Origin: a bacterium
Lineage (GTDB): Bacteria; Eisenbacteria; RBG-16-71-46
Assembly: GCA_031360075.1 (NCBI GenBank)
Contig: JANMAX010000316.1
Span: 1-52,123 of the forward strand
Length of the DNA: 52,123 bases
Direction: 5' to 3'
Part shown: positions 15,247 to 48,254 of the stretch, piece by piece
How the letters are laid out: each line of letters opens with the position of its first letter
Numbering within the stretch: position 1 is the first letter of the stretch
Notes under the pieces: generated by a model
Database searches by the model: none
What the model was told of the DNA's origin: nothing
What the model saw: the letters and a program-made list of their open reading frames with translations, nothing else
Position numbers and translations under genes: made by a program

Positions 15247-15253
15247 GGTGTGC

Positions 15254-18957: not shown

Positions 18958-21133
<2,176 letters not shown>

Positions 21134-28351: not shown

Positions 28352-28825
28352 TCACCCCTCGCGACTGTGCCTCGCCTCGTACGCCCGGTACTGCAGCGCC
28401 TCCGCCAGCCTTAGCGCACCCACACGCGGCTCGCCCGCGAGGTCCGCGATGGTGCGCGCCACGCGCATCGCGCGGTGCACGGCGCGCGCACTCATGCCGC
28501 CGCGGTCCACGGCGTCGGCGACCAGTTGGCGGCCGGGCGCGTCCAGCGCACAGTGCTCGCGCAACAGTGGCGCGGGCATCTGCGCATTCAGCCAGCTGCG
28601 CTGCAACTGCACGGCGCGCGCGGCGAGCACACGCGTGCGCACGGCGTCCGACGGCTCGCCGGGGGCGGCGGCCATGAGTTCGTCCGACGTGAGCGGCGTC
28701 ACCTCGATCTGCAGGTCCAGACGATCGAGGATCGGCCCGCTCACCCGTGCCGTGTAGCGCATCAGGTCGCGCGGCCCGCAGCGGCAGCCGCGTTTGGGAT
28801 GTCCGAGCCAGCCGCACGGGCAGCG
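28352..28825 (-). repeat. displaced comM 3' end, copy 1 (474 bp, open frame, no native start)
   Basis: Encodes CPCGWLGHPKRGCRCG...ALQYRAYEARHSREG; the last 136 aa differ from intact ComM at 3 positions. Confidence 0.95.
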
Positions 28826-28830
28826 TTGCG

Positions 28831-29262
28831 TTGCCTTTTACCAGCTTGCGGCTCAACGTCGCCAAACCGCGCGTGTTCCCAAGGGGTTACCCGCAGAATC
28901 CAACGACGCTCGGCGAATACGTCCGACGCCGAAGACTCGATCTCGGGCTCCCGCAACGAATCCTCGCCGAGCGCTGGCGGGTCACCCGCGAGACGGTCGC
29001 CGGATGGGAACTGGGGCGCTGTCAGCCCGCTATCCGGCACTGGCCGCTCGTCCTCGCGTTCCTGGGGGACGACCCCACGCCGACCGGATTCGTCCTTGCC
29101 GACCGCATCCTTGCCCACCGTCGGAGGTTCGGATTGAAGCAAACCGAGCTGGCCGCCCAGCTCGGGATCGATGCTGGAACGGTCCTCGACCTTGAGTCCG
29201 GGCGGAGAACGCCGAGCGCCCGCGTGAGCGCAGTCGTCGAACGGCTGCTCAGGCGCCGGTAG
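28831..29262 (+). CDS. tandem XRE-family helix-turn-helix protein (unit 1)
   Basis: TLGEYVRRRRLDLGLPQRILAERWRVTRETVAGWELG plus a second HTH (GLKQTELAAQLGIDAGTVLDLESG); TTG start inferred from the paralogs. Confidence 0.85.
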   Translation: MPFTSLRLNVAKPRVFPRGYPQNPTTLGEYVRRRRLDLGLPQRILAERWRVTRETVAGWELGRCQPAIRHWPLVLAFLGDDPTPTGFVLADRILAHRRRFGLKQTELAAQLGIDAGTVLDLESGRRTPSARVSAVVERLLRRR

Positions 29263-29299
29263 TCAACACCGCGGCTACCAATGGACCATGCCGGCGAAC

Positions 29300-29395
29300 G
29301 AGATTGGACTTGCGCCAGGGGGGGGGGGGCACATGCCTACTCTCCACGTGCGCGACCCCCTGTCGTGTCCATCACGCAAGCGCGTCCTCGTGAAG
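29300..29395 (+). promoter_or_regulatory. conserved cassette promoter/operator box with G12 tract (unit 1)
   Basis: GAGATTGGACTTGCGCCA-G12-CACATGCC-TACTCT; homologous boxes at 35286 and 42838. Confidence 0.6.
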
Positions 29396-29631
29396 GCATT
29401 CCCGAGGCGCGCGATCTGATTTCATTGAACTCTCGCGGATGTAGAAACCTGGAGTGGCCGCGGCATGCCAATCGCCGTGCACACGCCTCGGTGCTTGGCG
29501 TAACCCTCCGCGGAAGTTCGGTGAGCGCGATGAGCGAAGCGACGCTTGCTGGTTTGGGCCGATGGGCCGCCACACCTCCACCGCAGGCTCCGATGTCGTT
29601 GAACCAGTATCTCGATTGGGGGGATGCACGC

Positions 29632-31761
29632 ATGATCTCACCGGCGCGTCTCAACTCGCATCGTGTTGCCTTGGCAGCTCTCATGCTCCTGTTGCAACTG
29701 GCAGCTCCGCGACAATCGTCGGCCCTCCAACTGCGATGGAGCGGCGGGTCCGCGGCGCTGGACTTCAGCACCAACACGCGAGTGGTGCTCAGGGTCCAGG
29801 CGGATTCCAGCGAGGGAGTACTCCCTGTGTGGTGGAAGCTCATTGGCGTTTCGGATTCCTCGGGCATTCACATCGTCGCACCCGACTCGCTGACGGCCTG
29901 CCAGGTCGACACGGCCAAGGTCTCCTCTGTCGACCCGCCGTCCACGCCGGCGGACAGCGCCGCGAACCAGACGACGGCGCACCTCTGTTCGTCCGAGAGC
30001 ATCCGCGCCACCGTTGCGTTCTACACTATCGACCTCCTTGCAGGGAGCAAGGGGAGGCTCAAGGTCGTGGCCCTGTCCCCGGCCGATCCAGATTCCGTCA
30101 TCGAGTCGAATGAGGTCGTGTACAATGGTGGGGTCGAAGGCAATTTCCCTCCCGCGCTTCTCCGAACGACCAGCAACCACGCAACCGCATCCCTCGAGGT
30201 CACGGCGGTCGGTGCCGGTCTGGCCGACGTCGATTCGGTGACGGTCGGGGCCGCGGATGGACTCTGGAGTGTTCCGTTGGTCGTCCAATCGAAAAGTCCG
30301 AAGCGACTCACCGCGAGCGCTGATGTGCCCGCCAAGCTGCCCAGCGCGGTGGTCAAGGTGGTGAGTCCCTCTGGGATCAGTGTGGAGGATCTGCCGGCCG
30401 ACAACTCGAGCGCGCTCGTCGTTGTCAGCGCGACGTCCGACACCATCCTGTACCGGGACCCGGATCCAGGCGTCTATTGCCACGATTTCGCGTTCTACTA
30501 CAACGCGGTCCCCGACCCGACGAACCCGGCCCATCCTTGGAAGGGCGCGTTCCACCTGTTCTACATCCGGGTCAAGATCGCCAATTCTGCAGACAGCATC
30601 ATCGCCCACGCCTGGTGCGACACGCTCGGCGCACCTTGGAAGGTGGATTTGAACGCCTTCCGCCCAAGTGGCCAGGGCTGGGACGCCGCAAAGGTCTGGG
30701 CGCCGTCGATCCAGCAGATCGGCAACCTGACGTATATGTTCTATACGGGTGTGGATGCGCTGGGGAACCAGAGCATCGGCTACGCCACCACGCCGATGCT
30801 CGGCACCACCAACATCAGTTGGACGCGCAGGACAACGCCGATCTACACGGCGGCCAACGCGGGCTGGGCGGACAAGGTCGGCCACGAAGTCTCGGGAAGA
30901 ACCAGCTTTCGCGATGCCTTCGTCATGCCGGACCCCGACGAGGTGAAATACCCGGGTCGCTACCTCTTGTTCAATGCGGGCGAGGACGGCGTCCTGTTCC
31001 CCCACTACGCGATCGGTGTCGCCAGGAATCGAGCTGGCACGCTGAATCAGTGGGATGATGGTGGCAAGTTCTTCGCGACCGACCATACCCACATGCCATT
31101 CATCACTGGAGCGCTCGAATCGCCACTGATGGTAAGGGACTCGCTCACGGGGGCGTGGCGTATGTTCGTCGCGAACGCGAACTACGATAATTTGGGCCGC
31201 AAGTCGACGTACTTCTTGACCCAAGTGCCCGGGGACAGCGTCACAGACATCGCCGCCTCTGCCTGGCCTGGGCTCGATTCGCTCTACTACTACACCGGCA
31301 ATGATGCGAGCGTGATCGGATGGCAGGCAGCCGAGCATCTCCAGATCGGTCCGGTCCACTTCTTTGCCTCCTACGTCGGACCGACGGGCATCGGCATCAC
31401 TCGGATGCACTGGGATCCGGTGGCGCAGCGGTTCTTCTTCGTGCATCCCACGAATGCAAGTGTGGGCGATCAGCCCGACGGAGGAGACCTACGCTTCTAT
31501 CTAACTGAGTTTCGTCCGCGGGCCGACCTCGTGCGCTTCGTCCTCGAGTCCGCAAACGCGATAATCCCGAAGCTCATGATCTACGATCTCCTGGGACGGC
31601 GAGTCCGCAACCTCAGTGACGGTCGCGCCACGCAGGGGCGCCATGAGTTCGCGTGGGACTGCCGCAAGGACGATGGCGAGCGCGTCTCGGCGGGCATGTA
31701 CTTCGCTCGGCTGACGGGTTCGAACCGGGCCATGGTGGTTCGTGTTCCGATCCTCCGATAG
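29632..31761 (+). CDS. secreted protein with GH32/GH43-like five-bladed beta-propeller and C-terminal FlgD-Ig/T9SS-CTD-like domain
   Basis: Signal peptide; HDFAF, HLFYI, WAPSI, YMFYTG, FRDAFV and LESP clan GH-J/F-like motifs; C-terminal IYDLLGRRVR...WDCRKDDGERVSAGMYFARL. Confidence 0.7.
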   Translation: MISPARLNSHRVALAALMLLLQLAAPRQSSALQLRWSGGSAALDFSTNTRVVLRVQADSSEGVLPVWWKLIGVSDSSGIHIVAPDSLTACQVDTAKVSSVDPPSTPADSAANQTTAHLCSSESIRATVAFYTIDLLAGSKGRLKVVALSPADPDSVIESNEVVYNGGVEGNFPPALLRTTSNHATASLEVTAVGAGLADVDSVTVGAADGLWSVPLVVQSKSPKRLTASADVPAKLPSAVVKVVSPSGISVEDLPADNSSALVVVSATSDTILYRDPDPGVYCHDFAFYYNAVPDPTNPAHPWKGAFHLFYIRVKIANSADSIIAHAWCDTLGAPWKVDLNAFRPSGQGWDAAKVWAPSIQQIGNLTYMFYTGVDALGNQSIGYATTPMLGTTNISWTRRTTPIYTAANAGWADKVGHEVSGRTSFRDAFVMPDPDEVKYPGRYLLFNAGEDGVLFPHYAIGVARNRAGTLNQWDDGGKFFATDHTHMPFITGALESPLMVRDSLTGAWRMFVANANYDNLGRKSTYFLTQVPGDSVTDIAASAWPGLDSLYYYTGNDASVIGWQAAEHLQIGPVHFFASYVGPTGIGITRMHWDPVAQRFFFVHPTNASVGDQPDGGDLRFYLTEFRPRADLVRFVLESANAIIPKLMIYDLLGRRVRNLSDGRATQGRHEFAWDCRKDDGERVSAGMYFARLTGSNRAMVVRVPILR

Positions 31762-31779
31762 GCACGCGATGCACGTGGA

Positions 31780-34314
31780 GTGCGACACATCGACCGGCCG
31801 GGGCTGGCTGTGAGCGGAATGGCTCAGACGGCGCCAGTTGGTCGGAGCAAGGCAAGCCCAGCGACGTACCGCGGCTCGATAGTAATACGGGCACTGTACG
31901 TCTGGCTGGGGCTGGTGGTCGCCGTCCACGGATCCGCGCACGCCCAAGTGGTGGACTCTACGCTATGGTGTCTTAATCCAGGTTCCACGCTGCTCGCCAT
32001 CGGCAAGCTGGGGCATACCCTCTACCTCGGCGGTAGCTTCCGGTACATTGGGCCGTCGACGGGCGGAGGAGTGCCGTGCGACTCTCATTCTGCGGCCCCG
32101 CTCGCGAACTATCCTCGCGTCGTCGGCCGGGTCTACACGGTAGTCGCCGACGGGCAGGGCGGGTGGTACATCGGCGGCCTGTTCTCCTATGTCGGCGGGC
32201 AGCCGCGGGCGAATCTCGCCCACATCCTCGCGGATGGGAGCGTGGCTGCGTGGGCTCCGGATCCGGACCAACAGGTGTCGGCGATCGCACTCGCCGGCGG
32301 GACCGTCTACGTGGGCGGGGATTTCAAGCTCGTCGGGGGCCAGCCGAGGGCACACTTGGCCGCGCTAGGTCCATCGAGCAGCAGGCCCTTGCCCTGGACG
32401 TGCGATGCGAACGACCGCGTGATGTCACTCGCGGCAAGCGGGTCGACGCTGTACGTGGGCGGATGGTTCACGGTCCTCGCGGGTCAGCCGCGTGCGCGCG
32501 TCGCCGCGGTGGACTTGGCCAGCGGAGTGCCCACGCCGTGGGCGGTGAATCTCGACGATCGCGTCAGCGCGCTGGCGATGCACGACACGACCCTGTTCAT
32601 CGGCGGTTACTTCTGGACCGCAAACGCCGATACGCATCGTTGCATCGTCGCAGTCGGGGCTTCCACCGGCGCGGTGCACGCGTGGAATGCGCTCGTCGAC
32701 CGCCAACCGCCCTCCTCGTTGGATTTCGGCCCGCACGTCAACGCCATGCTATTCAGTGGGGAGTCATTGTTCGTCGCCGGGTCATTCACGCATATCGGTC
32801 GTCAAGCTCGCCAATCGCTGGCGCAGATAGACGTTGCGAGCGGGCGAGCGACGGATTGGAATGCGCGCCCATTCCGCGACACGAGGCTGGGGCCGGAGTT
32901 CTTCTCGCTCGCGTGCTCGGGGGACACGCTCTTCGTCGCGGGGCCATGCGATTCGATTGGCGGCGAGCCATGTGGGCAGGCGTCGGCGCTCAACTCGCGG
33001 AACGCAACCAAGCTGGAATGGGACCCACTGACCAACGATTTCGTGTTCGCGCTGAGCTTGCAGGGTGGTGTCATCTACGTCGGGGGTTGGTTCACGTCGG
33101 TGCGCGACTGGGTGCTCCGCCCCGGCCTCGCCGCGATCGATGAGCAGACGGGACGAGTCACCGATTGGGACCCTCATCCCGACGACTACGTGAGGAGCCT
33201 TCTCGTTCACGGCGGCAAGATCTACGTTGGCGGCTATTTCGGGTCGGTGGGCGGCCAGTTCCGTTCGGGAATCGCTGCGTTGGATCCCGTGACCGGCGAA
33301 GCCACGTCGTGGAACCCGAGTGCAGATGGAGCAGTTTGGTCCATGGCTCCGATGGGCGACGCGGTGATCGCCGCGGGGCTATTCAGGCGAATCGGTGGCC
33401 GTTTCCTAACCGGCCTCGCTGCAATCGATACCTCGACCGGCCGTGCGACATTGTGGACTCCCGATGCAGGAGGCGACGTACACTGCCTGGCTGTCAGTGA
33501 CACGGCGATCTATGTCGGGGGGGACTTTCTCGTCATGGGCGGCAAGCCTCGTGGATCACTCGCCGCCGTCGATCCGTTGACCGGCGCGGCTACCCCCTGG
33601 AACCCCCCGACCGACGGAATCGTGAATGCGATTGCCCTGCTTGACGGAACCATCTATGTCGGAGGCTTGTTCAACACAGTAGGTGGGCTTCCACGCAATT
33701 TCCTCGCCGCCGTCGATCGAGCCGGCTCCGTGTTGCCGTGGGACCCTGATGCCTTCGGCCCAAATGGGGACGGTCGCGTTCGAGCCCTTGTCGCCAAGGA
33801 CAGCACCCTCTTCGCAGGCGGATTCTTCTCCGGGGTGTCGGGGGAGTCCCGCGAGTACTTCGCGGCGCTGGACGCCAAGACGGGCGCTGTGCGACACGAA
33901 TACCCGCACCCCGACGGACCGGTATGGGCGCTTGCCGAGAGCGGCGGCAGTATCTACGTGGGGGGGGCGTTCGGGCGTATGGGACAGTGGCCCCAGGTGG
34001 CACTAGCGGCGATCCGGCCGAGTGGCGCGCTACCGCCGCCTGTCTCGATTCGCCTCCTGCTTGCGCAGAGCGCCCCGAACCCCGCGACCAGCTCCACGGT
34101 AGTGCGGTACTCACTGCCAGCCGGCGCGCCGGTAAGCCTCACCCTGTTTGACTTGCAGGGCCGTCGAAGCGCAAGGGTTCTATCGGACGTATTCCAATCC
34201 GCCGGCCCGCATCAGGTCAGCGTTCGCACCGATGGTCTACGGGCGGGATGCTACCTCTACTGTCTAGAAGCTGGTTCGCTCAGAGCAACGAGGAAGATGG
34301 TGATCGTGAGATAA
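31780..34314 (+). CDS. secreted beta-propeller repeat protein with C-terminal sorting-like domain
   Basis: About 14 repeats of a (L/I/V)YxGGxF..GG..R..LA blade; C-terminal PNP...LFDLQGR...AGCYLYCL; start codon uncertain. Confidence 0.8.
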   Translation: MRHIDRPGLAVSGMAQTAPVGRSKASPATYRGSIVIRALYVWLGLVVAVHGSAHAQVVDSTLWCLNPGSTLLAIGKLGHTLYLGGSFRYIGPSTGGGVPCDSHSAAPLANYPRVVGRVYTVVADGQGGWYIGGLFSYVGGQPRANLAHILADGSVAAWAPDPDQQVSAIALAGGTVYVGGDFKLVGGQPRAHLAALGPSSSRPLPWTCDANDRVMSLAASGSTLYVGGWFTVLAGQPRARVAAVDLASGVPTPWAVNLDDRVSALAMHDTTLFIGGYFWTANADTHRCIVAVGASTGAVHAWNALVDRQPPSSLDFGPHVNAMLFSGESLFVAGSFTHIGRQARQSLAQIDVASGRATDWNARPFRDTRLGPEFFSLACSGDTLFVAGPCDSIGGEPCGQASALNSRNATKLEWDPLTNDFVFALSLQGGVIYVGGWFTSVRDWVLRPGLAAIDEQTGRVTDWDPHPDDYVRSLLVHGGKIYVGGYFGSVGGQFRSGIAALDPVTGEATSWNPSADGAVWSMAPMGDAVIAAGLFRRIGGRFLTGLAAIDTSTGRATLWTPDAGGDVHCLAVSDTAIYVGGDFLVMGGKPRGSLAAVDPLTGAATPWNPPTDGIVNAIALLDGTIYVGGLFNTVGGLPRNFLAAVDRAGSVLPWDPDAFGPNGDGRVRALVAKDSTLFAGGFFSGVSGESREYFAALDAKTGAVRHEYPHPDGPVWALAESGGSIYVGGAFGRMGQWPQVALAAIRPSGALPPPVSIRLLLAQSAPNPATSSTVVRYSLPAGAPVSLTLFDLQGRRSARVLSDVFQSAGPHQVSVRTDGLRAGCYLYCLEAGSLRATRKMVIVR

Positions 34315-34337
34315 GTGTGCACGTGCCCGGAGGCTAT

Positions 34338-34811
34338 TCATACTTCGCCGCTGTGTCTCGCCTCATACGCCCGATACTGCAGCGCCTCGGCGAGCCGCAG
34401 CGCTCCGACGTGCTGTTCCCCGCACAGGTCCGCGATCGTCCGCGCCACGCGCAGCGCACGGTGAACGGCGCGCGCGCTCATGCCGCCGCGGTCGACGGCG
34501 TCGGCGACCAGTTCTCGCCCTGCTGCATCCAGTGCGCAGTGCTCGCGCAGCAATGGCGCCGGCATCTGCGAGTTGAGCCAGCCGCGAGCGCGTTGTAGTC
34601 CACGGGCAGCGAGCACCCGCGAGCGCACATTTGAGGAGCACTCGCCCGGCGCCGCCGCCATCAGCTCATCCGAAGTGAGCGCCATCACTTCGATCTGGAG
34701 ATCCAACCGATCTAAGATCGGCCCCGACACGCGCGCCGCGTAGCGCGCCAGGTCACGCGGTCCGCACTTGCACCCGCGCTTCGGGTGGCCCAGCCAGCCA
34801 CACGGACAGGG
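34338..34811 (-). repeat. displaced comM 3' end, copy 2 (474 bp, most divergent)
   Basis: PCPCGWLGHPKRGCKCG...ALQYRAYEARHSGEV; open frame; same breakpoint as the other copies. Confidence 0.95.
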
Positions 34812-34816
34812 TTGCG

Positions 34817-35272
34817 TTGCCTTTCTGCAATCTCCGCCTCGCTGGACGAAGAGCGCCTGCGTTGCCAAGAGGTTACCCGACTTCGCTCGTCACGCTTGGC
34901 GACCACATCCGCCGCCGTCGGCTCGACCTGGGCCTATCGCAACGAACCCTGGCAGGCCGCTGGCGGGTCACCCGCGAGACCGTCGCTGGGTGGGAACTCG
35001 GTCGGTACGAGCCCTCGATTCGCCACGGGCCACTCGTGATTGCCTTCCTGGGTATGGACCCAACTGCCACCCGAAGCGCGATCCCCGAAGGGCTCAGGTC
35101 CGTCCGCCGCCGGTTCGGTCTCACCCAGGGCGAAATGGCGGTTCGGCTCCGGCTCGACGCCGGGACCGTCGCCGATCTCGAAGCCGGGCGGCGGTCCCCA
35201 AGTGCGCGAGTCAGGAGCGCCGTCGTGCGCCTGTTGGAGCAGGCCCTGCAAGATCCGAGTGTACCGAAGTAG
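34817..35272 (+). CDS. tandem XRE-family helix-turn-helix protein (unit 2)
   Basis: TLGDHIRRRRLDLGLSQRTLAGRWRVTRETVAGWELG plus a second HTH; paralog of 28831 and 42369. Confidence 0.85.
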   Translation: MPFCNLRLAGRRAPALPRGYPTSLVTLGDHIRRRRLDLGLSQRTLAGRWRVTRETVAGWELGRYEPSIRHGPLVIAFLGMDPTATRSAIPEGLRSVRRRFGLTQGEMAVRLRLDAGTVADLEAGRRSPSARVRSAVVRLLEQALQDPSVPK

Positions 35273-35285
35273 CTCGCCGAGTATC

Positions 35286-35365
35286 GAGGTTGGACTTGCG
35301 CCAAGGAGGGCGGCCCCGGTTGCGCCTGCCACCCCTCCGTCGTGACCCAATGAGTCTCGCGTGAC
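35286..35365 (+). promoter_or_regulatory. degenerate cassette promoter/operator box (unit 2)
   Basis: GAGGTTGGACTTGCGCCAAGGAGGG; no poly-G tract and no TACTCT. Confidence 0.5.
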
Positions 35366-36557: not shown

Positions 36558-36685
36558 ACCGCGCGAACCTTGTACACGAGTCCCCGCCGCGCAAAGCTCT
36601 CGCCACGCGATGGCGCGTTTCGCGAGCGCCTTCCGGTCATGGCTTGTCGGCGACGCCACTTCTGCGACCTGCTCAGGAGTCTGCC

Positions 36686-38710: not shown

Positions 38711-38795
38711 GAAGACTGCACTCGAACGGTGGGCTCGAACGTCGCAGAGCCTGGCGCGAGCCACTTTCCGGATCTGATCCGGATCGAGGCACTCC

Positions 38796-41700
38796 ATGAA
38801 CTCACCCCGCCGGATGTCGAGTTCCAGGTGGTCGTGGCTGGCCGTGGCCATGACATCGTGCGCGCTCGTGAGTTCGACGCGCTCACTCGCCGAGTGCGAG
38901 CCGGGCTTTGAGCTCCATCCCGAGTACTACACGTTCAGCGTGGGCGCCAAGCCGGTGTCCGTGGCGACTGGAGACTGGAACGAGGACGGCCGACCCGACG
39001 TCGTGACCGCGAACGCGGATGGCCGTTCGCTCACGTTGCTGTTCGGTGCGGGCGGCTTTCACCTCCGGCCCGGAGGCGAGATCCCGATGGGGGCGGCCGC
39101 CTACTGGGTGGAGCCCAAGGACATGAACGCCGACGGGCATCTCGACCTGGTCGCCACCGGGGACTTCGGCACTGTCGTACTGGTGGGTGACGGCCGGGGA
39201 GGATTCCGGACCGGCGCTACCTACCCCTATGCCGGTACGTTCCTGGCGCTTGGAGATCTCAACCGGGACGGCTCGTGCGACATCGCGCTGGCGTCCAGGA
39301 CGGCCAAGCTCGACGTGACGTTCCTGTTCCTCAAAGGGCTGGATGTAGACCACGTGCATACGTTGCCCTATCCAGTGGATGCGATCCATCTCGGGGACTT
39401 CAACGAGGACGGGGCTCTGGACATGGCCGTTGTTGGATGTGGGGGCTACATCTGGCTGAACCCTGGCGACGGAACCTTCAGCCCATCATGGACCTTCTAC
39501 CCGTATCACTGCTGCACCAAGTGGGGGGCAGTCGGCGATATCAACGGCGACGGTCACGTCGATATCGTGGGAGTGGAAAGCTACCCGGGCTGCGGTGGCG
39601 TCCTGCTCGGCCGCGGAGATGGAACCTTTCAAGACCCGTATGGCGGGCTCGCCGCCGAGTTGCCCTCGGGTCCGGAGGAGCCGCGACCGCCAGCCGTCGC
39701 GCGCCGCCAAGTGCCCAGCGGCGAAACGAGGCACGAGCCGTGGATGCCACCCCTGCTCAGCGGCGCATCCTGGCAGGTTCAGGACTCGGGCGGCGAGCCC
39801 CTGCCGGAGCGTCCGGCGAGTGTTCCCAGTGCGTTGTGGCCGACCAACGAACCGGGCGCCGGCCCCGATCTCCTGCTGGACGCGGTTCACTATGGACCGC
39901 ACTGGGTCATGCTCGCGGATCTCGATGGGGACGGCCGGGACGACTGGGTCACACTGAGCAATCAGCCGGGAGAAGAAGTCCTGTACCGGCGCTCGGTGTC
40001 CTACCCGACGGCGGCGGTGGTGGTCGACATCGACGGCGACGGTCGCCTGGACGTGGTGGCCGCGGGACGCCAGTACTGGGGCGCTGGACCGATCGATGGG
40101 GCGGTGGCGGTGCATCCGGGGGACGAGCACGACATCATCCGCCGCAACCCGAGCGTGTACATGAGTGACCGGCCGGTGATGGCAGAGCTGGTCGACTTCA
40201 ACCGGGATGGGATCGCGGACATCGCCTCCATGGGAGACGACGGCCTGCAGATCGTTGTCAGGCAGGCCGACGGGAGCCTCGGTCCGATCCTGGGCGCGCC
40301 GGGCTACTACGGCTTTGGGCACGCGTTCGTCGACATCAACGGTGACGGGAACCTCGACGTGCTGGACGGAGATCCCATGCTGTATCTCGGCAATGGGGAT
40401 GGGACGTTCGACTGGGAGATGCCGATCCAGTACTTCGACAGTCGTCTGAGCGGATTCGACGCGGGGGATGTGGATGGGGACGGCAAAGTGGACGTGGTCG
40501 GGATCCGCTGGTACAGCGTGCCCGGCAACCGGCCGGAGGGCCCCGCACTGCTCCTGCGTGGGAACGGCGACGGGACGTTCCGCCCCGCGACCGAGCTGGG
40601 GATAACCGCCGCCCAGGTGAGGCTCAAGGACCTGGACGGCGACGGCCACCTGGACATGGTCGTCGCCAGGGAGAACGGAGGCATGTCGGTGTACTGGGGC
40701 AGCGGCGATGGGACATTCACGATGGGCCCGGTGCTCGAGAGCTCCGGGACGATCTACTCGCTGCTCTATGGAGACATCGATGGGGACGGGCGGCTCGACC
40801 TGTTCGCCAACCCGGAAGCCCGAGAAGTCGTCTACCGCAGTCTGGGAGGGCGGAGTTATCAGCGCCTGGCACTGAATCTGCGAGTCTACCCGACATTCCC
40901 GGCCCTGGGGGATATCAACGGCGACGGCAAGGATGATCTCATTGACTACGGCATCCAGGCATTCCACGTCTACTTGAGCAATGGTGACGGCAGTTTCCGA
41001 GGGCCACTCGAGGATTCGTATGGACCGGGCGGGCTCGTCCTCGTGGACCGGGCGAGCCGGAGCCCGCAGCAGCTCTTCGCGCTCACTCGGAACAACGAGT
41101 ACTACTTCACCAAGGTCACACTGGTCGAGAACGAGCAGAGGCCCAACCGGGGGCCGATCACGGGCAACGCCCGCGCGGTGGTGACGGGCCCGGGGGCTCG
41201 GAATCACGGTTGGGCGGACATCTCGATCGCGGGCGTGAGCGATCCCGAAGGTGACGCAGTGAGCATCGCGGTGACGGGGATCACGCAGGACGAACCGGTG
41301 GGGAGCGGGTTCATGGGCGGTCCGCACGGGACCGCGGGCTCCGGCGGGCCTCACTGTCCGGATGCTCTCATCGTGGGCGGGCAGGCGCGGGTGCGTTGGG
41401 AGCGTGCGGGCTCCGGAAACGGCCGCATGTACAGGGTGGACTTCATCGCGACGGACGGCTGTGGCGGAACAAGTCCCGGCCAGGTAAACGTGTGCGTGCC
41501 GCACGATGCCGCGTCGCTGACATGCGTGGACGATGGTCAGCGCTACAACTCGCTCGGATGTGAGGTGGGCGGTCCCGCAGCGCTGGCGGTGTCGGCGGCG
41601 GATGGCCTGTACGCGCCGCAGGTGCACGCCGGAGGCGCGGAACTCCACTATTCGCTGGCACAGTCGGCCGAGGTGCGACTCGAGATCTTCGACCTCTTGG

Positions 41701-41849
41701 GCCGAAGGCGCGCGGTGCTGACGGGCGGACTTCAGCCGCCGGGTGAGCACCGGGCGCGCTGGGATGCCGTGGGGGCCGCGGGGGTGTACTTCGCGCGGCT
41801 CTCGATCCGGGGGCAGAGCTTCGTCCAGCGCTTCGCGCTTCTCCCTTGA
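38796..41849 (+). CDS. secreted FG-GAP/VCBS repeat protein with C-terminal sorting-like domain
   Basis: 13 DxxxDGxxD repeats; signal peptide; C-terminal IFDLLGRR...AGVYFARL. Confidence 0.88.
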   Translation: MNSPRRMSSSRWSWLAVAMTSCALVSSTRSLAECEPGFELHPEYYTFSVGAKPVSVATGDWNEDGRPDVVTANADGRSLTLLFGAGGFHLRPGGEIPMGAAAYWVEPKDMNADGHLDLVATGDFGTVVLVGDGRGGFRTGATYPYAGTFLALGDLNRDGSCDIALASRTAKLDVTFLFLKGLDVDHVHTLPYPVDAIHLGDFNEDGALDMAVVGCGGYIWLNPGDGTFSPSWTFYPYHCCTKWGAVGDINGDGHVDIVGVESYPGCGGVLLGRGDGTFQDPYGGLAAELPSGPEEPRPPAVARRQVPSGETRHEPWMPPLLSGASWQVQDSGGEPLPERPASVPSALWPTNEPGAGPDLLLDAVHYGPHWVMLADLDGDGRDDWVTLSNQPGEEVLYRRSVSYPTAAVVVDIDGDGRLDVVAAGRQYWGAGPIDGAVAVHPGDEHDIIRRNPSVYMSDRPVMAELVDFNRDGIADIASMGDDGLQIVVRQADGSLGPILGAPGYYGFGHAFVDINGDGNLDVLDGDPMLYLGNGDGTFDWEMPIQYFDSRLSGFDAGDVDGDGKVDVVGIRWYSVPGNRPEGPALLLRGNGDGTFRPATELGITAAQVRLKDLDGDGHLDMVVARENGGMSVYWGSGDGTFTMGPVLESSGTIYSLLYGDIDGDGRLDLFANPEAREVVYRSLGGRSYQRLALNLRVYPTFPALGDINGDGKDDLIDYGIQAFHVYLSNGDGSFRGPLEDSYGPGGLVLVDRASRSPQQLFALTRNNEYYFTKVTLVENEQRPNRGPITGNARAVVTGPGARNHGWADISIAGVSDPEGDAVSIAVTGITQDEPVGSGFMGGPHGTAGSGGPHCPDALIVGGQARVRWERAGSGNGRMYRVDFIATDGCGGTSPGQVNVCVPHDAASLTCVDDGQRYNSLGCEVGGPAALAVSAADGLYAPQVHAGGAELHYSLAQSAEVRLEIFDLLGRRRAVLTGGLQPPGEHRARWDAVGAAGVYFARLSIRGQSFVQRFALLP

Positions 41850-41889
41850 TTCGGGAGCACGAGGCGGGGAATCAGCGCGGGCAGGGCAT

Positions 41890-42363
41890 TCATGCTTCGG
41901 AAGCGTGCCGTGCCTCGTACGCCCGGTACTGCAGCGCCTCCGCCAGTCGTAGCGCGCCCACCCGCGGCTCGCCCGCCAGGTCCGCGATCGTGCGCGCCAC
42001 GCGCATCGCGCGGTGCACGGCGCGCGCGCTCATGCCGCCGCGGTCCACAGCGTCGGCGACCAGTTGGCGTCCGGGCGCGTCGAGTGCGCAGTGCTCGCGC
42101 AGCAGGGGTGCTGGCATCTGCGCGTTCAGCCAGCCGCGCTGCAACTGCACGGCGCGCGCGGCGAGCACGCGCGTGCGAACGGCATCAGACGGCTCGCCGG
42201 GAGCCGACGCCATCAGCTCTTCTGAAGTCAGCGGCGTGACCTCGATCTGCAGGTCGAGCCGGTCGAGGATCGGTCCCGAGACACGCGCCGTGTAGCGCAT
42301 CAGGTCGCGCGGGCCGCAGCGGCAGCCGCGCTTGGGATGCCCGAGCCAGCCGCACGGGCACCG
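41890..42363 (-). repeat. displaced comM 3' end, copy 3 (474 bp)
   Basis: CPCGWLGHPKRGCRCG...ALQYRAYEARHASEA; open frame; same breakpoint as the other copies. Confidence 0.95.
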
Positions 42364-42368
42364 TTGCG

Positions 42369-42815
42369 TTGCCTTTTACCAGCCTGCGGCTCAAGGCGCC
42401 CAGACCCTCCGTGTTCCCAAGGGGTTACCCGAAGAATCCGGTGACACTCGGTGAACAGCTCCGTCGTCGAAGGCTCGATCTCAGCCTGCCGCAACGAATC
42501 CTCGCCGAGCGCTGGCGGGTCACCCGCGAGACGGTCGCCGGATGGGAGCTGGGACGCTGTCAGCCCTCGATCCGGCACCGGCCGCTCGTCGTGGAGTTCC
42601 TGGGGCTCGACCCGACGCCGACCGCGGCCACGCTCGGCGGCCGACTTCGGGCCTACCGACGCAAGCATGGACTGACGCAGGCGGAGCTCGGTGTCAGGGT
42701 GGGCATCAATGAGGGGACCATCCTCGATATCGAAGCGAATCGGCGAAAGACCAGCGCCCGCGTCGTGGCGCTCATTGAGGGCTTGCTGGCGCGGGGCCGG
42801 GCTCCAAACCGGTGA
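42369..42815 (+). CDS. tandem XRE-family helix-turn-helix protein (unit 3)
   Basis: TLGEQLRRRRLDLSLPQRILAERWRVTRETVAGWELG plus a second HTH (GLTQAELGVRVGINEGTILDIEAN). Confidence 0.85.
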   Translation: MPFTSLRLKAPRPSVFPRGYPKNPVTLGEQLRRRRLDLSLPQRILAERWRVTRETVAGWELGRCQPSIRHRPLVVEFLGLDPTPTAATLGGRLRAYRRKHGLTQAELGVRVGINEGTILDIEANRRKTSARVVALIEGLLARGRAPNR

Positions 42816-42837
42816 CCAAAGGATAACTTCGAAGAAT

Positions 42838-42930
42838 GAGATTGGACTTGCGCCAGGGGGGGGGGGAGGCGCCTACTCTGCCCCTTGCGCTCCCCCGTCG
42901 CGCACCAGTGCGATCATGCGTGCTCGACCT
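42838..42930 (+). promoter_or_regulatory. conserved cassette promoter/operator box with G11 tract (unit 3)
   Basis: GAGATTGGACTTGCGCCA-G11-AGGCGCC-TACTCT. Confidence 0.6.
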
Positions 42931-43002
42931 GTCCTTTCCGATGAGCACGAGCGCATTGCATTGAACCTCGTACCTCGCGGCAGCTCTCAGTGGGATAGTC
43001 GA

Positions 43003-46000
43003 ATGACGGATCAGATTCGTCGACTTGCGATCATCGCGTTGGGCTCGCTGCTCCTCGCCGCTTCTGCGACAACGAGTTCGGCAGGCAATAACGCAGGGGG
43101 AACAGCGCGATTGAGTTGGGACGAGGCCGGCGTGGTGCTGAATATTGCATCTCCTCCTTCCGACTCGTTCCCCCTGTTTCTTTCCCTGTCCGGAGCACCA
43201 AACGTACGCGCCCTCGCCGCCGTGGTTCAGTGGTTTCCCACCGACCCGACGGGTGCGTGCTACGGCTTGCTCCCGGCCTCGCCAGGGGGGACTTGCGGCA
43301 GCACGAGCGAAATGCCGACGACTGGCGAGTTCCACGGAGAGCCGACCAACGAGTGGTGGAGCATTTCATTCCCGCCAGGCAGCACCGCACGGCACTGCGT
43401 CTCCTGGATCGTGACTGCCGCCGGCTGCCCGATTCTTCCACCCGCGATCTTTACGGCACAGGTTCGTATCGAGGACTCGAATGGCGATGTCGACACCCTC
43501 GCGGTGCAGCTACCGGCCACGATCGGATCGTCTCAGGCTGCCTCGTTGGAGGCGACCGCCATCTCCCCCGCGATTGTGGTGCCGGCCACGGAAACCATGT
43601 TGCGAGTCCGTGGATCGGGATTTCTTCCCGGGTCGCACGTGTCGCTTAGCAACTCCACGAGCCGCGTGGAGGCCAGTCGCGTCATCGTGCTTTCCCCTGA
43701 TGAGATTGCCGCAACCGTGGCGCCCGGCCAGTCGGCGACTCCATACGATCTGACCGTCTCGATGGCAGACGGACGCTCTTCGGTTTCACCGCAGGACGTG
43801 GCGACTGCTCCCGCATTGGCATTGTCGATTTCCAGCCAGTTGCCGCGCCCAACCAACGCCGCCGGAGCGATTCGCACGCTCGCCCTCTGGGCCGATCAAA
43901 GCGCTACAGTGAACGTTGCGCATATTGGATTACCTCTCCCTTCAGCTTTGACCACCGACTCGCTGCTGATTCCACGCCCCGCCGGAGGCGACACGATGGC
44001 CGTGCTCAGGAGCACGCCGAGCGATTGCATCGAGTTCAACGCCGGTGTCGCGTGTTGTCCCAGCTATGTCGAGTACAACATCTCGCCGCCTCAGTACGCC
44101 ACATCGATTGGCCTGCTGCAGATGGGCAAGGGGGTCCTCAGGGGCACGGGGGCATTCGACGACAACAACCTTCCTATCGTCTCGGTCAGAACACGATTCG
44201 CAGACGGTGATTCGGTCGTCGATACGCTTCGCGTCGGGCGGCAGGTGCGCAATTCCAAGGACGGCTCGCTCTCATGCCCGATCGCCGGGCCCATTCCGTA
44301 CTTCGTGCTTCAGCCCGACGATCCGCTGAATGCCCAGTTGTACGCTAGCGGTGGGGCGTTCTACGACGCGCAAGAGGTGCAACTGCCGCCGAGCAAGCGC
44401 TCCAAGCTCGTTAGTGCGATACGCATCAGTGAGCTTGCCATCGTGCACAACAATTGTGCTCCGTCTGGTTTCACCGGGTGCCAGAGCTACCTGAGCGGGA
44501 TCGGCCTGTGGCCTTCATTCGAAGTCAGAAACCGTCATGGTGGCAGCCTTGGGCTTCAGACTCAGTTCGCGACAGCCTACGCGGGCTTGCCGTATGGAGG
44601 GTACATCGTGCGCGACACCCTGTTCGGGGCGCACAACACTATCCGGGCCCTGGGTTGCATGCTGAGCTGCATGGCGATGGCTAACTCGTTCCTGGGCGAC
44701 ACCGTTACCGTCTTGGGGCTGAACAAGTACCTAGCGCTGCACGATGGATTCGAGCCTACAACTCTTGTCACGCTCAACCAGGTGAACGGCCAGAGCCTCG
44801 GGTCGACGGTGACCTGGACGGTTAGGCCCGGCGTGAAGTTGTCTGTCGGCGATACGGTGCTCTTCGAATCGCCTGGGACTCAGCGTCGAAGTCCCCTCGT
44901 GACGTTGGTGACCGGTCCGACAACCTCGCAGGCTACGATTGTTCTCAGGCACCGCTCGGGCCTCTTGACAGGCAACATGACGGGCGTCGGGTATGGACTC
45001 GTCAACACAGATGTGGCCGCCGAGGCGTACTCCAAGAGTAGTGGGCATCCTTGGCACCTGGTCAGGCTCATCGGGACGAGTCCGGCAATCCCGCCGCTCG
45101 TGGAGACCGCCCTGGTGGATTCGCTTCCTGTGCTGTTGGAGGAGCCGCACCACTACGTCCTTGCGCGCGGCTGGCGACCCAGTTTTGGCGGCAACTTTGC
45201 GAATGGCACCTACGTCCTGAACGACCCGGGCCATGATGGCGTGACTCGACTTAACCAGAATTTCGTGGTGGGCGGAACTCCTACGAGTTTCGGAAACACG
45301 TTCTTGGCGGCGAGATCGTGCGTCCCGCTGGAAGCGAACCACTACAACTCGACGGCGGTCGGCGGTGGGGCTGTCAGCTTCGTTCTCCAGGGGGGCGGCC
45401 GGCTCAGCATTACTGATTCCTCGGGTCGCGGATTGGACTTCTACGACACGCTCGGCGGATACGACGGCAATCTCCCGGGCGCGAATGCCTGGCCGGACTA
45501 TGGGGCCGGTCTGGACGATGGCCTGGCCGCTGAGGCGCCAGTTGAGTACGTTGAGCTTGCAGGTGCCGCCGGCGGCGACTACCGAGTGCAGGTCGTCGCC
45601 AAGGGCTCTGCTTCCTTTGGGCTGGGTGCCTCAACCCTCGATGCCGATGGCAACTGCGCCCGAGCGTACGCAGAGTATCCGCTGAGCACCGGCGAAGCAG
45701 TGACGTTCAGCGTGCACGTCGTGCAAGGCGCATCGTCCAGCGTGCGAATCGACACATTGACGACTGCTGGTGTCGGGGGCGGAACTCAGCAACTCCCAAC
45801 CGCGCTGACGGTACGACCGAACCCAAGCCGCGGTAAGGTGGAGTTGGTGGCTGACATGGCGGTTCAGGGAAACGTAACGATCGAACTGTTTGACATCGCT
45901 GGAAGGCTTGTTGCTGTACCTCTCAATGGTCCAGTTGCTGCAGGACGACAGGTCATCCACTGGGACGCCGAAACTGGGGGAAGCGTGAGCGGACGAGCAG

Positions 46001-46068
46001 GGCTCTATTTTGTACGAATGAGAACAGGGGCGCAGGTGTTTACGCGCCGCCTACTGGTGACGCGATGA
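43003..46068 (+). CDS. large secreted multidomain protein: GNNAG module, IPT/TIG-like domain, C39-like papain-fold peptidase, C-terminal sorting-like domain
   Basis: Signal peptide; LRVRGSGF..G IPT-like motif; TIRALGCMLSCMAM / HHYVLARG / LNDPG Cys-His-Asp pattern; PNPSRG...LFDIAGR...AGLYFVRM. Confidence 0.75.
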   Translation: MTDQIRRLAIIALGSLLLAASATTSSAGNNAGGTARLSWDEAGVVLNIASPPSDSFPLFLSLSGAPNVRALAAVVQWFPTDPTGACYGLLPASPGGTCGSTSEMPTTGEFHGEPTNEWWSISFPPGSTARHCVSWIVTAAGCPILPPAIFTAQVRIEDSNGDVDTLAVQLPATIGSSQAASLEATAISPAIVVPATETMLRVRGSGFLPGSHVSLSNSTSRVEASRVIVLSPDEIAATVAPGQSATPYDLTVSMADGRSSVSPQDVATAPALALSISSQLPRPTNAAGAIRTLALWADQSATVNVAHIGLPLPSALTTDSLLIPRPAGGDTMAVLRSTPSDCIEFNAGVACCPSYVEYNISPPQYATSIGLLQMGKGVLRGTGAFDDNNLPIVSVRTRFADGDSVVDTLRVGRQVRNSKDGSLSCPIAGPIPYFVLQPDDPLNAQLYASGGAFYDAQEVQLPPSKRSKLVSAIRISELAIVHNNCAPSGFTGCQSYLSGIGLWPSFEVRNRHGGSLGLQTQFATAYAGLPYGGYIVRDTLFGAHNTIRALGCMLSCMAMANSFLGDTVTVLGLNKYLALHDGFEPTTLVTLNQVNGQSLGSTVTWTVRPGVKLSVGDTVLFESPGTQRRSPLVTLVTGPTTSQATIVLRHRSGLLTGNMTGVGYGLVNTDVAAEAYSKSSGHPWHLVRLIGTSPAIPPLVETALVDSLPVLLEEPHHYVLARGWRPSFGGNFANGTYVLNDPGHDGVTRLNQNFVVGGTPTSFGNTFLAARSCVPLEANHYNSTAVGGGAVSFVLQGGGRLSITDSSGRGLDFYDTLGGYDGNLPGANAWPDYGAGLDDGLAAEAPVEYVELAGAAGGDYRVQVVAKGSASFGLGASTLDADGNCARAYAEYPLSTGEAVTFSVHVVQGASSSVRIDTLTTAGVGGGTQQLPTALTVRPNPSRGKVELVADMAVQGNVTIELFDIAGRLVAVPLNGPVAAGRQVIHWDAETGGSVSGRAGLYFVRMRTGAQVFTRRLLVTR

Positions 46069-46613
46069 GGGCGAGCGGAGTTGTTCTAGGAAAGCGCTTG
46101 TGTCTTAGCTTGCTGGTAGCTGTGCTTGTCGAAACTCCGCCCGCCACTCAGGCTGGGACGGCAGGACATTTGCTTTTGTACGTTCGTGGGAACGTGAGCG
46201 ACATCGTCCTGGTCGATCCCGCTGGAAGGGCCGACCGGCAGAATGACAGTATCGCGGTCGCCAACATTCCTGGCTGCGGGCGGTGGCCCGGTGGTCTGGG
46301 GGGAGACCAGAGTGACCCCACTACTGTTGACTCCAGCGCCAGGTCCCAGATGCTGTTCGAGTTGAGCATCGTTCATTACGGACGGTACCTCGTCTCCGCT
46401 CAGTCTGACGACAGTCTCGATGTGGAAGTGGTGGGGACCTTCGATACAGCGGACCACTCCTCGACGGCTTGCGTAGACCTGACCCAGAGGGACCGAGTCG
46501 CAGTCGGCCGCACCACCTGGGCCGTTGACGTTCGGCGTTCGCCGCCACCGGGTGAATGCACAATCCGGATTACTCGGCTAGGCGAGTGGAAATCGAAGGG
46601 TAGGTGTCGGTAG
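46065..46613 (+). CDS. secreted hypothetical protein, paralog of 27711-28265
   Basis: Signal peptide; ATGA overlap with the upstream gene; extensive identity with 27711-28265. Confidence 0.8.
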   Translation: MRASGVVLGKRLCLSLLVAVLVETPPATQAGTAGHLLLYVRGNVSDIVLVDPAGRADRQNDSIAVANIPGCGRWPGGLGGDQSDPTTVDSSARSQMLFELSIVHYGRYLVSAQSDDSLDVEVVGTFDTADHSSTACVDLTQRDRVAVGRTTWAVDVRRSPPPGECTIRITRLGEWKSKGRCR

Positions 46614-46742
46614 CCCTTGAGGTTGGCTCCAGAGGCAGCGAGCCGCGAAAACTCGATGGGACGACCGACTTGATGGGTCCGCATTGATAGACTGGCTCGC
46701 GAGCTTGAGTTGGAAGGCAAGATTGCCTCGTATCAATACGCG

Positions 46743-48254
46743 TCACCCCTCGCGACTGTGCCGCGCCTCGTACGCCCGATACTGCAGCGCCTCCGCCAGT
46801 CGTAGCGCGCCGACGCGCGGTTCACCCGCGAGGTCCGCGATGGTGCGCGCCACGCGCAGCGCGCGGTGCACGGCGCGGGCACTCATGCCGCCGCGGTCCA
46901 CGGCGTCGGCGACCAGTTGGCGGCCGGGCGCATCGAGTGCGCAGTGCTCGCGCAACAGCGGCGCCGGCATCTGCGCGTTCAGCCAGCCGCGTTGTAGCTG
47001 CACCGCGCGTGCCGCGAGCACGCGCGTGCGCACGGCGTCAGAGGGTTCGCCGGGCGTGGCGGCCATCAGTTCGTCAGACGTGAGCGGCGTGACTTCGATC
47101 TGCAGGTCGAGGCGATCGAGGATGGGCCCGGAGACCCGCGCGGTGTAGCGCATCAGGTCGCGCGGCCCGCAGCGGCAGCCGCGCTTCGGATGCCCCAGCC
47201 AGCCACAGGGACAGGGGTTCATGGCCGCGACAATGAGTGGCCGCGCCGGGAAGCGCGCGTGCGAACCAGCACGCGCGATCGCGACTTCGCCGTTCTCGAG
47301 CGGCTCGCGTAGCGCGTCGAGCAGTGAGCGTGGGTACTCCGACAGCTCATCCATGAACAGCACGCCACGATGCGCTAGCGACAGTTCGCCCGGCCGCGGC
47401 GGATTGCCGCCGCCCACCAGACCTGCACGTGACACCGAGTGATGCGGCGCGCGGAACGGCCGTGAGCGCATGAGTCCGCGGCCGGGCGAGCGCAGGCCGG
47501 TCGCCGAGTGCAACCTTGTCACCACCAGCGCCTCGCTGTGCTCGAGCGGTGGCAAGAGTCCCGGGAGACGCCGCGCCAGCATGCTCTTGCCGCAGCCCGG
47601 CGGGCCCACCAGCAGCACATGGTGTCCGCCCGCAGCGGCGATCTCGAGTGCATGGCGTGCGATGGCCTGGCCGCGTACGTCCGACAAGTCCTCGTCGTGC
47701 CCGGTCTGTGCGTCGGGGGAGGCCCGCAGTGCGCGCGGCAGGTCTTCGCCACGCAGCCACGCCACCGCTTCCCCCAGGTGCTTCACCGCGAGCACTTGCA
47801 GGCCATCGACCAAGGCGGCTTCGGGTGCGGCCTCGGCCGGGCACACCAGCGTGTGTGCGCCGGCGCGCCACAGGCTCTCGGCCAGCGCCAGCGTTCCGCG
47901 TGTGCCGCGCAGGGCGCCGTCCAGTGCCAGTTCGCCCATGGCCGCGGTGCGCTCGAGCCTTTCCAACGGGGCCTGGCCGGTGGCGGCCACCAATCCGAGC
48001 GCCAGCGCCAGATCGGCCGAGGCGCCCTCTTTCCGGCGATCGGCGGGGGCCAGGTTCACGGTTACGCGGCGGTCGGGTGGTGAGAACCCGGCATTGCGGA
48101 GCGCAGGCCAGACGCGCTCGCGCGACTCACGCGCAGTGGCGTCGGGCAGCCCGACCATGACAAATCCCGGCAGTCCCGGCCCGACGTCGATCTCGCAATC
48201 GACCGGGAACGCGTCGAGTCCCCACAGTGCTGCCGTGCGCACGCGTGCGAGCAT
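46743..48254 (-). CDS. comM: ComM / YifB family Mg-chelatase-like AAA+ ATPase (intact)
   Basis: VGLPD...ESRERV, VNLAPAD, GELALDG, Walker A GPPGCGKS, RAPHH, GELSLAHRGVLFMDE, MNPCPCG and SGPILDRLD motifs; start at ATG 48254. Confidence 0.96.
   Translation of the reverse strand: MLARVRTAALWGLDAFPVDCEIDVGPGLPGFVMVGLPDATARESRERVWPALRNAGFSPPDRRVTVNLAPADRRKEGASADLALALGLVAATGQAPLERLERTAAMGELALDGALRGTRGTLALAESLWRAGAHTLVCPAEAAPEAALVDGLQVLAVKHLGEAVAWLRGEDLPRALRASPDAQTGHDEDLSDVRGQAIARHALEIAAAGGHHVLLVGPPGCGKSMLARRLPGLLPPLEHSEALVVTRLHSATGLRSPGRGLMRSRPFRAPHHSVSRAGLVGGGNPPRPGELSLAHRGVLFMDELSEYPRSLLDALREPLENGEVAIARAGSHARFPARPLIVAAMNPCPCGWLGHPKRGCRCGPRDLMRYTARVSGPILDRLDLQIEVTPLTSDELMAATPGEPSDAVRTRVLAARAVQLQRGWLNAQMPAPLLREHCALDAPGRQLVADAVDRGGMSARAVHRALRVARTIADLAGEPRVGALRLAEALQYRAYEARHSREG

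Follow-up and report, generated by a model that had tools for sequence, protein, structure and literature searches.

The subject of this analysis is comM in a contig of 52,123 nucleotides (nt) from a bacterium of the Eisenbacteria (lineage RBG-16-71-46; assembly GCA_031360075.1, contig JANMAX010000316.1). The whole contig, hereafter the window, holds the last third of this gene four times. Intact comM encodes a 503-amino-acid (aa) protein with Pfam matches to ChlI (PF13541, E 1.4e-33), Mg_chelatase (PF01078, E 8.1e-88) and Mg_chelatase_C (PF13335, E 4.1e-29), as well as a full-length match to the YifB model TIGR00368 (518.1 bits against a cutoff of 362.4). By these profile matches it is a member of the ComM/YifB family of Mg-chelatase-like AAA+ ATPases, and its start and length agree with those of homologs of 502-504 aa. 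The last 474 bp of the gene, counted with the TGA stop, occur in four direct copies on the minus strand, starting at 28352, 34338, 41890 and 46743, and comM is complete only where a copy is joined to its 5' part. A tblastn search of the whole window with ComM found exactly these four and no fifth.

46743..48254, minus strand: intact comM, YifB-family Mg-chelatase-like AAA+ ATPase, 503 aa (Pfam, TIGR00368, homolog lengths)
46743..47216, minus strand: copy 4, the 3' end in use by intact comM and joined to its 5' part; 157 codons and a stop, C-terminus HSREG
41890..42363, minus strand: copy 3, displaced comM 3' end, C-terminus HASEA (alignment, translation)
34338..34811, minus strand: copy 2, displaced comM 3' end, C-terminus HSGEV (alignment, translation)
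28352..28825, minus strand: copy 1, displaced comM 3' end, C-terminus HSREG (alignment, translation)

Aligned with MAFFT and translated, all four copies run without a gap and without a stop up to the shared TGA, giving 157 residues each. A repeat search recovered them as two adjoining four-copy families, 77-91% and 79-86% identical to copy 1. Homology proper begins at the Cys of CPCGWLG, so the block measures 471-473 nt (156-157 codons) and makes up about 31% of the gene. Copy 1 is nearest to copy 4 (89.2% DNA identity; 4 of 157 residues differ, 3 of them in the last 136); 42 of the 51 nucleotide differences between them fall at third codon positions, and the two stay 90% identical across the first 60 nt past the stop. 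Copy 3 is 87.0% identical to copy 4 in DNA, with 8 of 157 residues changed, and copy 2 is the most divergent, with 76-79% DNA identity and 22-26 aa differences to the other copies. The G+C content at third codon positions (GC3) is 0.85-0.89 in copies 1, 3 and 4 and 0.78 in copy 2; that of the comM 5' part (47217-48254, minus strand) is 0.81, below the neighbouring core genes (0.87-0.90).

Across the six pairs of copies, nucleotide identity ranges from 0.764 to 0.892 and the number of amino acid differences from 4 to 26 of 157. The ratio of nonsynonymous to synonymous divergence (dN/dS), calculated by the Nei-Gojobori method, is 0.037-0.136 in all six pairs, with dS of 0.48-1.15. The nonsynonymous share of the differences is 0.10-0.37 versus the 0.73-0.74 expected under neutrality (binomial p 1e-14 to 1e-20, every pair). 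These values show that the four ends diverged almost entirely under purifying selection, each within a working comM. Because dN/dS is low, dS is large and the silent excess is strong, the copies are neither products of a recent duplication nor pseudogenes in free decay; the displaced ends have the appearance of selected sequence because they diverged during service as the end of comM. In a quick IQ-TREE tree, copies 1, 3 and 4 form a clade (SH-aLRT 97) with copy 2 outside it. A preliminary description of the locus had already reported four 474-bp copies free of stops and indels, the C-termini HSREG, HSGEV, HASEA and HSREG, and 3 changes from intact ComM in the last 136 residues of copy 1 alongside many third-position changes, and alignment and translation agree with it exactly. 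Its expectation of dN/dS much below 1 is borne out in all pairs: no value comes near 1, and at 76-89% identity the copies are not near-identical DNA. Its further claim, that each fragment recently served as the working end of comM, stands as regards the service, to which the silent excess testifies, and not as regards the recency, since a low dN/dS would equally be expected if the ends had diverged on elements or while working in other hosts and does not imply recent service in this genome.

Between successive copies lie three complete islands of 4.4, 7.1 and 5.5 kb, followed beyond copy 1 by one truncated remnant. All island genes are on the plus strand, convergent with comM. Their open reading frames (ORFs) include, in each complete island, a gene with two helix-turn-helix (HTH) domains, and some of the cargo carries sorting domains of the type IX secretion system (T9SS) kind.

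42364..46742, plus strand: island A, 4.4 kb (Pfam, NCBIfam, GC3)
42369-42815, plus strand: double-HTH gene of island A
42691-46068, plus strand: island A, secreted 1125-aa ORF with a T9SS-type sorting domain (NCBIfam TIGR04183, 33.2 bits against a cutoff of 23)
46065-46613, plus strand: island A, 182-aa protein of unknown function
34812..41889, plus strand: island B, 7.1 kb (Pfam; GC3 0.74-0.82)
34817-35272, plus strand: double-HTH gene of island B
35709-36557, plus strand: island B cargo with a FlgD_ig-like tail
36554-38710, plus strand: island B cargo with fn3 and PD40
38796-41849, plus strand: island B cargo with FG-GAP repeats
28826..34337, plus strand: island C, 5.5 kb (Pfam, tblastn, NCBIfam)
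28831-29262, plus strand: double-HTH gene of island C
29281-31761, plus strand: island C cargo with a FlgD_ig tail
31780-34314, plus strand: island C cargo, 844 aa, DUF5122/PQQ-like beta-propeller (PQQ_2) with a sorting domain
27076..28351, plus strand: remnant of a fourth island, D (repeat families, ORF list, tblastn)

The islands are foreign in composition, with GC3 of 0.64-0.82 (0.67-0.78 in island A) versus 0.87-0.90 in the flanking core genes and G+C of 61-68% versus about 70%. By Pfam and tblastn, the cargo is different in every complete island. The 844-aa beta-propeller protein also matches the phage family phrog_5490 (unknown function) with E 2e-100. Residues 87-283 of the 1125-aa cargo of island A (42691-43540) resemble the 282-aa first cargo of island B (35646-36215) at 31% identity (E 3e-17); the gene that directly follows the HTH gene may be a second, loosely conserved component of the islands. 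Remnant D has neither an HTH gene nor its original comM end. It retains (27232-27711) the 160 C-terminal codons of a gene akin to the 1125-aa cargo ORF, at 62.5% aa identity, and by our own reading of the coordinates this match is interrupted by the stop that ends ORF 27076-27609. Next to it, ORF 27567-28265 (match 27768-28262) is 47% identical over 165 aa to the 182-aa protein of island A; no match for this pair, both members of which adjoin a comM copy, was found in Pfam, NCBIfam or PHROG. Between remnant D and an aminotransferase gene lies a 149-aa ORF (26595-27044, minus strand) with two CxxC pairs, hydrophobic stretches and no family match, which may be the native downstream neighbour of comM.

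The only gene common to the three islands encodes a two-domain XRE-type HTH protein of 143-151 aa, with a mutual identity of 59-69%. HTH_3 and HTH_31 score above their gathering cutoffs in all three copies, and HTH_31 matches two separate stretches in each, as does HTH_3 in the copy of island B; on this domain evidence the gene belongs to the XRE/Cro-CI-type regulator family. A profile of it matches the 434 and P22 repressors, HipB and ICEBs1 ImmR in the PDB, and one copy has a sub-threshold NCBIfam match to the VC1465 Xer activation factor family (E 3.4e-4; 20.7 bits against a cutoff of 70). The protein is probably a CI/ImmR-like regulator or a DNA-binding accessory factor. Because public homologs begin with MPFTSLRL, we placed its starts at the TTG codons at 42369, 34817 and 28831, each at a distance of 6 nt from the comM block in front of it. 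The N-terminal PFTSLRL motif is found in 6 of 8 public homologs, the exceptions (P0003 and P0004) starting further in.

A word-indexed protein search returned 9 relatives of the HTH protein and an exhaustive profile search 218 representatives at E <=1e-30, many of which are long multi-HTH repeat proteins; PFxxLRL or the neighbouring PRGYP motif occurs in 14 of the 148 representatives examined. Among the profile matches P0130-P0277 are proteins of many repeat units, for example one of 4162 aa with 25 matched stretches. Three of 66 long matches (P0191, P0194 and P0226, about 1000 aa) have N-terminal Resolvase and Recombinase domains followed by repeats of the HTH unit. These fusions are 26-34% identical and carry neither PFxxLRL nor PRGYP; large serine recombinase-HTH fusions are a possible lead to the type of the cognate recombinase, not evidence for it. 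Five loci returned by a scan of species-representative genomes with the HTH alignment, four in Streptomyces and one in a metagenome-assembled genome of Lentimicrobiaceae, were set aside as generic XRE proteins (35-43 residues at 40-51% identity), and tblastn matches of the HTH protein to plasmids (5 records) and phages (2) were all generic HipB, XRE or CI repressors.

The open frames of the displaced ends might instead reflect local tandem duplication of a module of comM end and HTH gene and later divergence on the spot, with the fragments kept by selection as expressed stand-alone C-terminal proteins. Every copy is an open frame, an internal ATG gives a 136-aa ORF in copies 1 and 3, and gene callers predicted such ORFs in public data. 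We nonetheless hold this explanation to be very improbable. In copies 1 and 3 the frame is closed by a TAA 5 codons upstream of the Cys, and copy 2, whose frame is open upstream as far as a TTG at 34868, lacks the internal Met (DLARY, not DLMRY), leaving no conserved start. Local duplicates with dS of up to 1.15 would have to be very old, the three islands carry unrelated cargo of foreign composition, and copy 2 is no nearer to the other copies in the window (83-86% aa identity) than to a fragment from another contig (P0010, 87%).

The islands meet the comM blocks in a constant arrangement.

42338..42377, no strand assigned: junction of island A, with the 5' edge of the block, then 5 nt (42364-42368), then the TTG start of the HTH gene
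~34786-34825 and ~28800-28839: the equivalent junctions of islands B and C

The gap to the HTH start is 5 nt beyond the 474-bp copy, or 6 nt counted from the first Cys codon. The three displaced copies begin at one and the same nucleotide of comM, and the element-side sequence and HTH start in front of them are likewise shared. At the other end, homology among the copies extends no more than a few nt from the stop codon; the exception is the pair of copies 1 and 4, which have related islands. An imperfect 9-nt inverted repeat with a 5-nt spacer (42338-42360) lies at the edge of copy 3; as none was reported in the other three regions at the threshold used there, we found it unconvincing as a core recombination site. 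No promoter or terminator was found in a consensus scan of 41700-42900, and Rfam and tRNA scans of the window gave no match, so the site is not linked to a tRNA. Within the block, 13 informative sites group copies 1+3, 11 group copies 1+4 and 6 group copies 1+2, in interspersed order; 5 of the 13 sites grouping copies 1+3 fall within the first 30 nt (binomial p 8.5e-4, uncorrected).

An array of this kind could in principle be an assembly artefact, in which contigs of several one-island strains were joined through the shared comM segment. The window is apparently metagenome-derived, the repeat is common to many related populations, and the HTH protein was not found in the species-representative genome collection. 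The longest exact in-register runs between neighbouring copies are, however, only 19, 29 and 32 nt. Final assemblies usually rest on longer k-mers than these. The order of decay, with remnant D at the far end, fits serial insertion, and we give the artefact very little credence.

None of the 136 window ORFs tested matched an integrase, resolvase or transposase family (Phage_integrase, Resolvase, Recombinase). These comprised 17 ORFs (13 in the array), 70 further ORFs of at least 90 aa on both strands of 26.5-47.1 kb, and 49 in the flanks; no helper element was found in the 52-kb window. The integrase that gene-restoring integrative islands carry themselves is thus missing from the array at this level of detection.

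Other instances of the junction occur in public data. Searching proteins of 96-308 aa with the 176-aa ORF of copy 2 gave 1556 ComM C-terminal proteins, of which the best 120 were classed. In 45 of these best 120, CxCGWLGH is directly preceded by a non-native ..ATQx (often ..CRKATQx), where the displaced copies of the window read KATQR or KATQP; the remainder are 47 with the native ..AAMNP (mostly cut by contig ends), 9 that start at MNP, 8 others and 11 that start further downstream. The junction peptide is an antisense reading of the start region of the HTH gene, and its recurrence implies that many genomes have this element-side junction. It occurs in ComM lineages only 64-86% identical to copy 2, and some of the short public fragments sit on contigs of 55-395 kb. 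Native and non-native junction types are intermixed across a quick IQ-TREE tree of the fragments.

Full-length relatives carry a second signal. We split 118 of 120 full-length ComM homologs, several of which are named Candidatus Eisenbacteria bacterium by their sources, at the CxCGW motif. The closest of those compared with the window ComM (P0278) is 98.6% identical over the 347 N-terminal residues and 83.2% over the 156 C-terminal ones, with 5 of 347 differences before the junction and 26 of 156 after it (Fisher p 4.7e-10). The BLASTP alignment shows complete identity over residues 179-348, with the next differences setting in at residue 349. Another homolog (P0279) has the reverse tendency (91.9% in the N-terminal part, 95.5% in the C-terminal part), which is not significant alone (p 0.18). 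The chimeric relative shows that allele swaps of the comM 3' end happen in nature.

On these observations, we think it probable that the locus is a tandem array of three complete islands and one truncated island, built by Campbell-type, gene-restoring insertion into comM with a recombinase acting in trans. All insertions would have used a single position in comM, directly 5' of the CPCGW codons and 156-157 codons before the stop. Each island would bring its own comM 3' segment, such that the resident 5' part and the incoming 3' part rebuild a full-length gene and the previous 3' end is pushed downstream behind the incoming island. The displaced ends would have diverged as functioning ends of comM, in this or other lineages, and spent little time as relics; D would be the oldest insertion and A the newest. 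We favour an island model because the segment that is kept is exactly what restores the gene, as in gene-restoring islands. As for mechanism, site-specific recombination by an enzyme supplied in trans is the most likely single candidate, although we put our confidence in it at about an even level; the integrase would be provided by a relative that is autonomous or by a different resident element, as happens in accretion and cis-mobilisation. This mode is preferred because the junction nucleotide is fixed across divergent lineages, the block ends at the stop codon, and the block of the chimeric relative was replaced whole.

The patchwork of informative sites bears on a competing mechanism, namely that the islands spread without any recombinase. 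Linear DNA acquired from related cells by natural transformation would insert through homologous crossovers, one flank recombining in the working fragment or the comM 5' part and the other in the displaced fragment; a crossover between the displaced fragment of a donor and the working fragment of a recipient would stack islands, and an intact ComM would serve the element. The lack of a recombinase domain in any ORF tested agrees with this, as do the comM homology that flanks every island and is present in any relative, the interspersed sites with their mixed linkage of fragments to flanks, and the help that ComM gives in integrating heterologous DNA (10.1101/147660; extracts of PMC11472951). 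However, it explains one fixed junction nucleotide in three copies, and the same peptide in 45 of the best 120 public fragments, by descent only. The block of P0278 was replaced whole, from the second codon on, exact runs of 19-32 nt are a poor substrate for RecA, and no divergence gradient is evident along the block. Moreover, with GC3 of 0.78-0.89 most silent sites toggle between G and C, and homoplasy alone can produce a patchwork. We consider homologous spread unlikely, though it is the main rival.

Alternatively, the islands may have carried integrases and lost them after insertion, becoming cis-mobilizable elements (CIMEs) by decay before they accreted. This is a documented route to tandem arrays (as described in extracts of PMC5704250), and the leftmost island is visibly decayed, being truncated and, on our own reading, interrupted by an internal stop. 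Against this, all three complete islands would have had to lose the integrase cleanly, with no remnant among the tested ORFs of at least 90 aa, while the HTH gene and cargo stayed intact; at the junction end, an HTH start 6 nt away leaves no room for an integrase. Decay of this kind seems to us a distinctly unlikely origin.

Several points also weigh against insertion by a trans-acting site-specific recombinase, the reading we prefer. No recombinase is in hand, here or elsewhere, so that we infer this mode of recombination from the sequences. That all three complete islands are integrase-less and yet keep the HTH gene is unlike random decay of integrase-bearing islands, and no remnants of integration or transfer genes were found at the Pfam level among the array-region ORFs tested. 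The array comes from a single assembly. The linkage of the fragments is in conflict: copy 1 resembles copy 4 at the 3' end and past the stop, which ties fragments to the cargo on the stop side, whereas copy 2 and its HTH gene are both outliers, and copies 1 and 3 resemble each other over their first 30 nt and in the HTH genes next to them, which ties fragments to the HTH side. A crossover about 30-50 nt into the block would account for such a conflict, and so would homologous exchange or gene conversion; four copies leave the pairing of fragment to island ambiguous, and the data do not fix the position of the crossover in the block. A more speculative view, to which we assign a low probability, is that the islands are a systematically recombinase-less family whose only conserved parts are a portable 471-nt comM 3' end and the double-HTH gene. 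Such a family might spread by ComM-dependent transformation with comM as the homology arm, or the HTH protein might recruit a host recombinase to a site in comM.

Elsewhere in the window, a purine-catabolism cluster (14737-20987, minus strand) encodes an OHCU decarboxylase, an allantoicase, an amidohydrolase, and the FAD and molybdopterin subunits of a xanthine-dehydrogenase-like enzyme. A 61-nt repeat at 15535 and 16024 lies inside the allantoicase ORF (15254-16249), where Pfam places two Allantoicase repeat stretches. At about 70% G+C, the window also contains long spurious ORFs opposite real genes, with no family match, such as 1371-6266 (minus strand, 1631 aa) over an SMC gene and 39486-41750 (minus strand) over the FG-GAP gene.

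The proposed arrangement can be compared with several known systems. The e14 element of Escherichia coli carries its own integrase. When e14 or phage 21 inserts at icd, a substitute 3' end keeps icd functional and the displaced icdC stays behind; excision recombines the two ends and changes the allele, mostly at silent sites (extracts of PMC13626634). The comM islands are similar in that the insertion lies in a protein-coding gene, a replacement 3' end is carried and the old end is left as a displaced fragment. They differ in their target, in the length of the segment (471-474 bp), in forming three and a half tandem elements, and in that no integrase or phage genes were found in them.

The segments restored by islands in tRNA genes, trmE and dusA are tens of bases long, versus about 31% of a 503-codon gene here. 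In islands of tRNA and tmRNA genes, of the 3' end of trmE and of the 5' end of dusA, the island sequence restores the split gene and a displaced fragment marks the far end (extracts of PMC4383910, PMC8409611 and PMC4482086). The comM array has the same layout as these tRNA/tmRNA islands (the Islander principle), with an intact target at one end and a displaced, direct partial copy at the other; those islands, like those of trmE and dusA, encode a tyrosine integrase next to the attachment site (att), whereas none was found in the comM islands. By this analogy, target restoration is already known for site-specific islands, and the comM array would be the same principle in tandem and without an identified integrase. 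In accretion of the ICESt1 type, CIMEs are integrase-less, att-bounded tandem elements that can be mobilised by the integrase of a neighbour (extracts of PMC5704250). The comM islands likewise are bounded by repeats and have no detected integration or transfer genes. CIMEs are, however, decayed integrative and conjugative or integrative and mobilizable elements, whereas no int or transfer remnants were found in the comM islands and the HTH gene abuts the junction in every complete unit. Integrative mobile elements exploiting Xer (IMEX) of the CTX/TLC type insert at dif, have no recombinase of their own, form tandem arrays and use the host Xer system, and a small element-encoded DNA-binding factor can activate the enzyme. 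Unlike theirs, the insertion point in comM lies inside a coding sequence and not at dif (no dif-like site was noticed, and no formal dif search was made), and the link to IMEX is limited to the sub-threshold match to the VC1465 family.

The comparison closest in target is with the AbaR/Tn6022-type (Tn7-like) islands, which interrupt comM of Acinetobacter and lower transformability; the disruption is thought to protect the element from being cured (extracts of PMC11441513 and PMC11472951). Both kinds use comM as a landing site and have variable cargo, but the AbaR-type islands are transposons equipped with transposition genes (TnsA/B/C-like). In the window, by contrast, comM is rebuilt at every insertion, no transposase families were found, and the repeat is a 474-bp piece of the gene rather than a short target duplication. 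The preliminary description had called the units opposite to the usual comM-disrupting islands, which applies to the AbaR/Tn7-like ones; target restoration as such is ordinary for site-specific islands generally (extracts of PMC4383910). Its proposals that the units preserve ComM and that C-terminal alleles are swapped have fared well, the former through a working gene that keeps 503 aa, its three Pfam domains and its 518-bit TIGR00368 match, the latter through the independent support of P0278, which is 98.6% identical before the junction and 83.2% after it. In a table in the extracts of PMC10322971, comM of Acidithiobacillus ferrooxidans is given as the site of an island with Int and RitABC, and in the literature searched on comM-restoring islands and Eisenbacteria elements no description of the present arrangement was found.

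What comM is best known for is its destruction by mobile elements, and the window presents another strategy at the same gene in an uncultured lineage. With comM rebuilt at each insertion, its last third would become a swappable allele. The junction peptide in 45 of the best 120 public fragments suggests that the element family is common there, and comM 3' ends may therefore be a practical marker for island boundaries in these genomes. The interesting question is by what means units without an integrase recombine when all they have in common is an HTH gene abutting the junction. If they do form a recombinase-less family, it would keep the transformation helicase intact because it depends on ComM, a mirror image of the AbaR-type islands. 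For the host, the array delivers variable secreted or surface proteins with T9SS-type sorting domains, and it may be a hotspot of cell-surface diversification.

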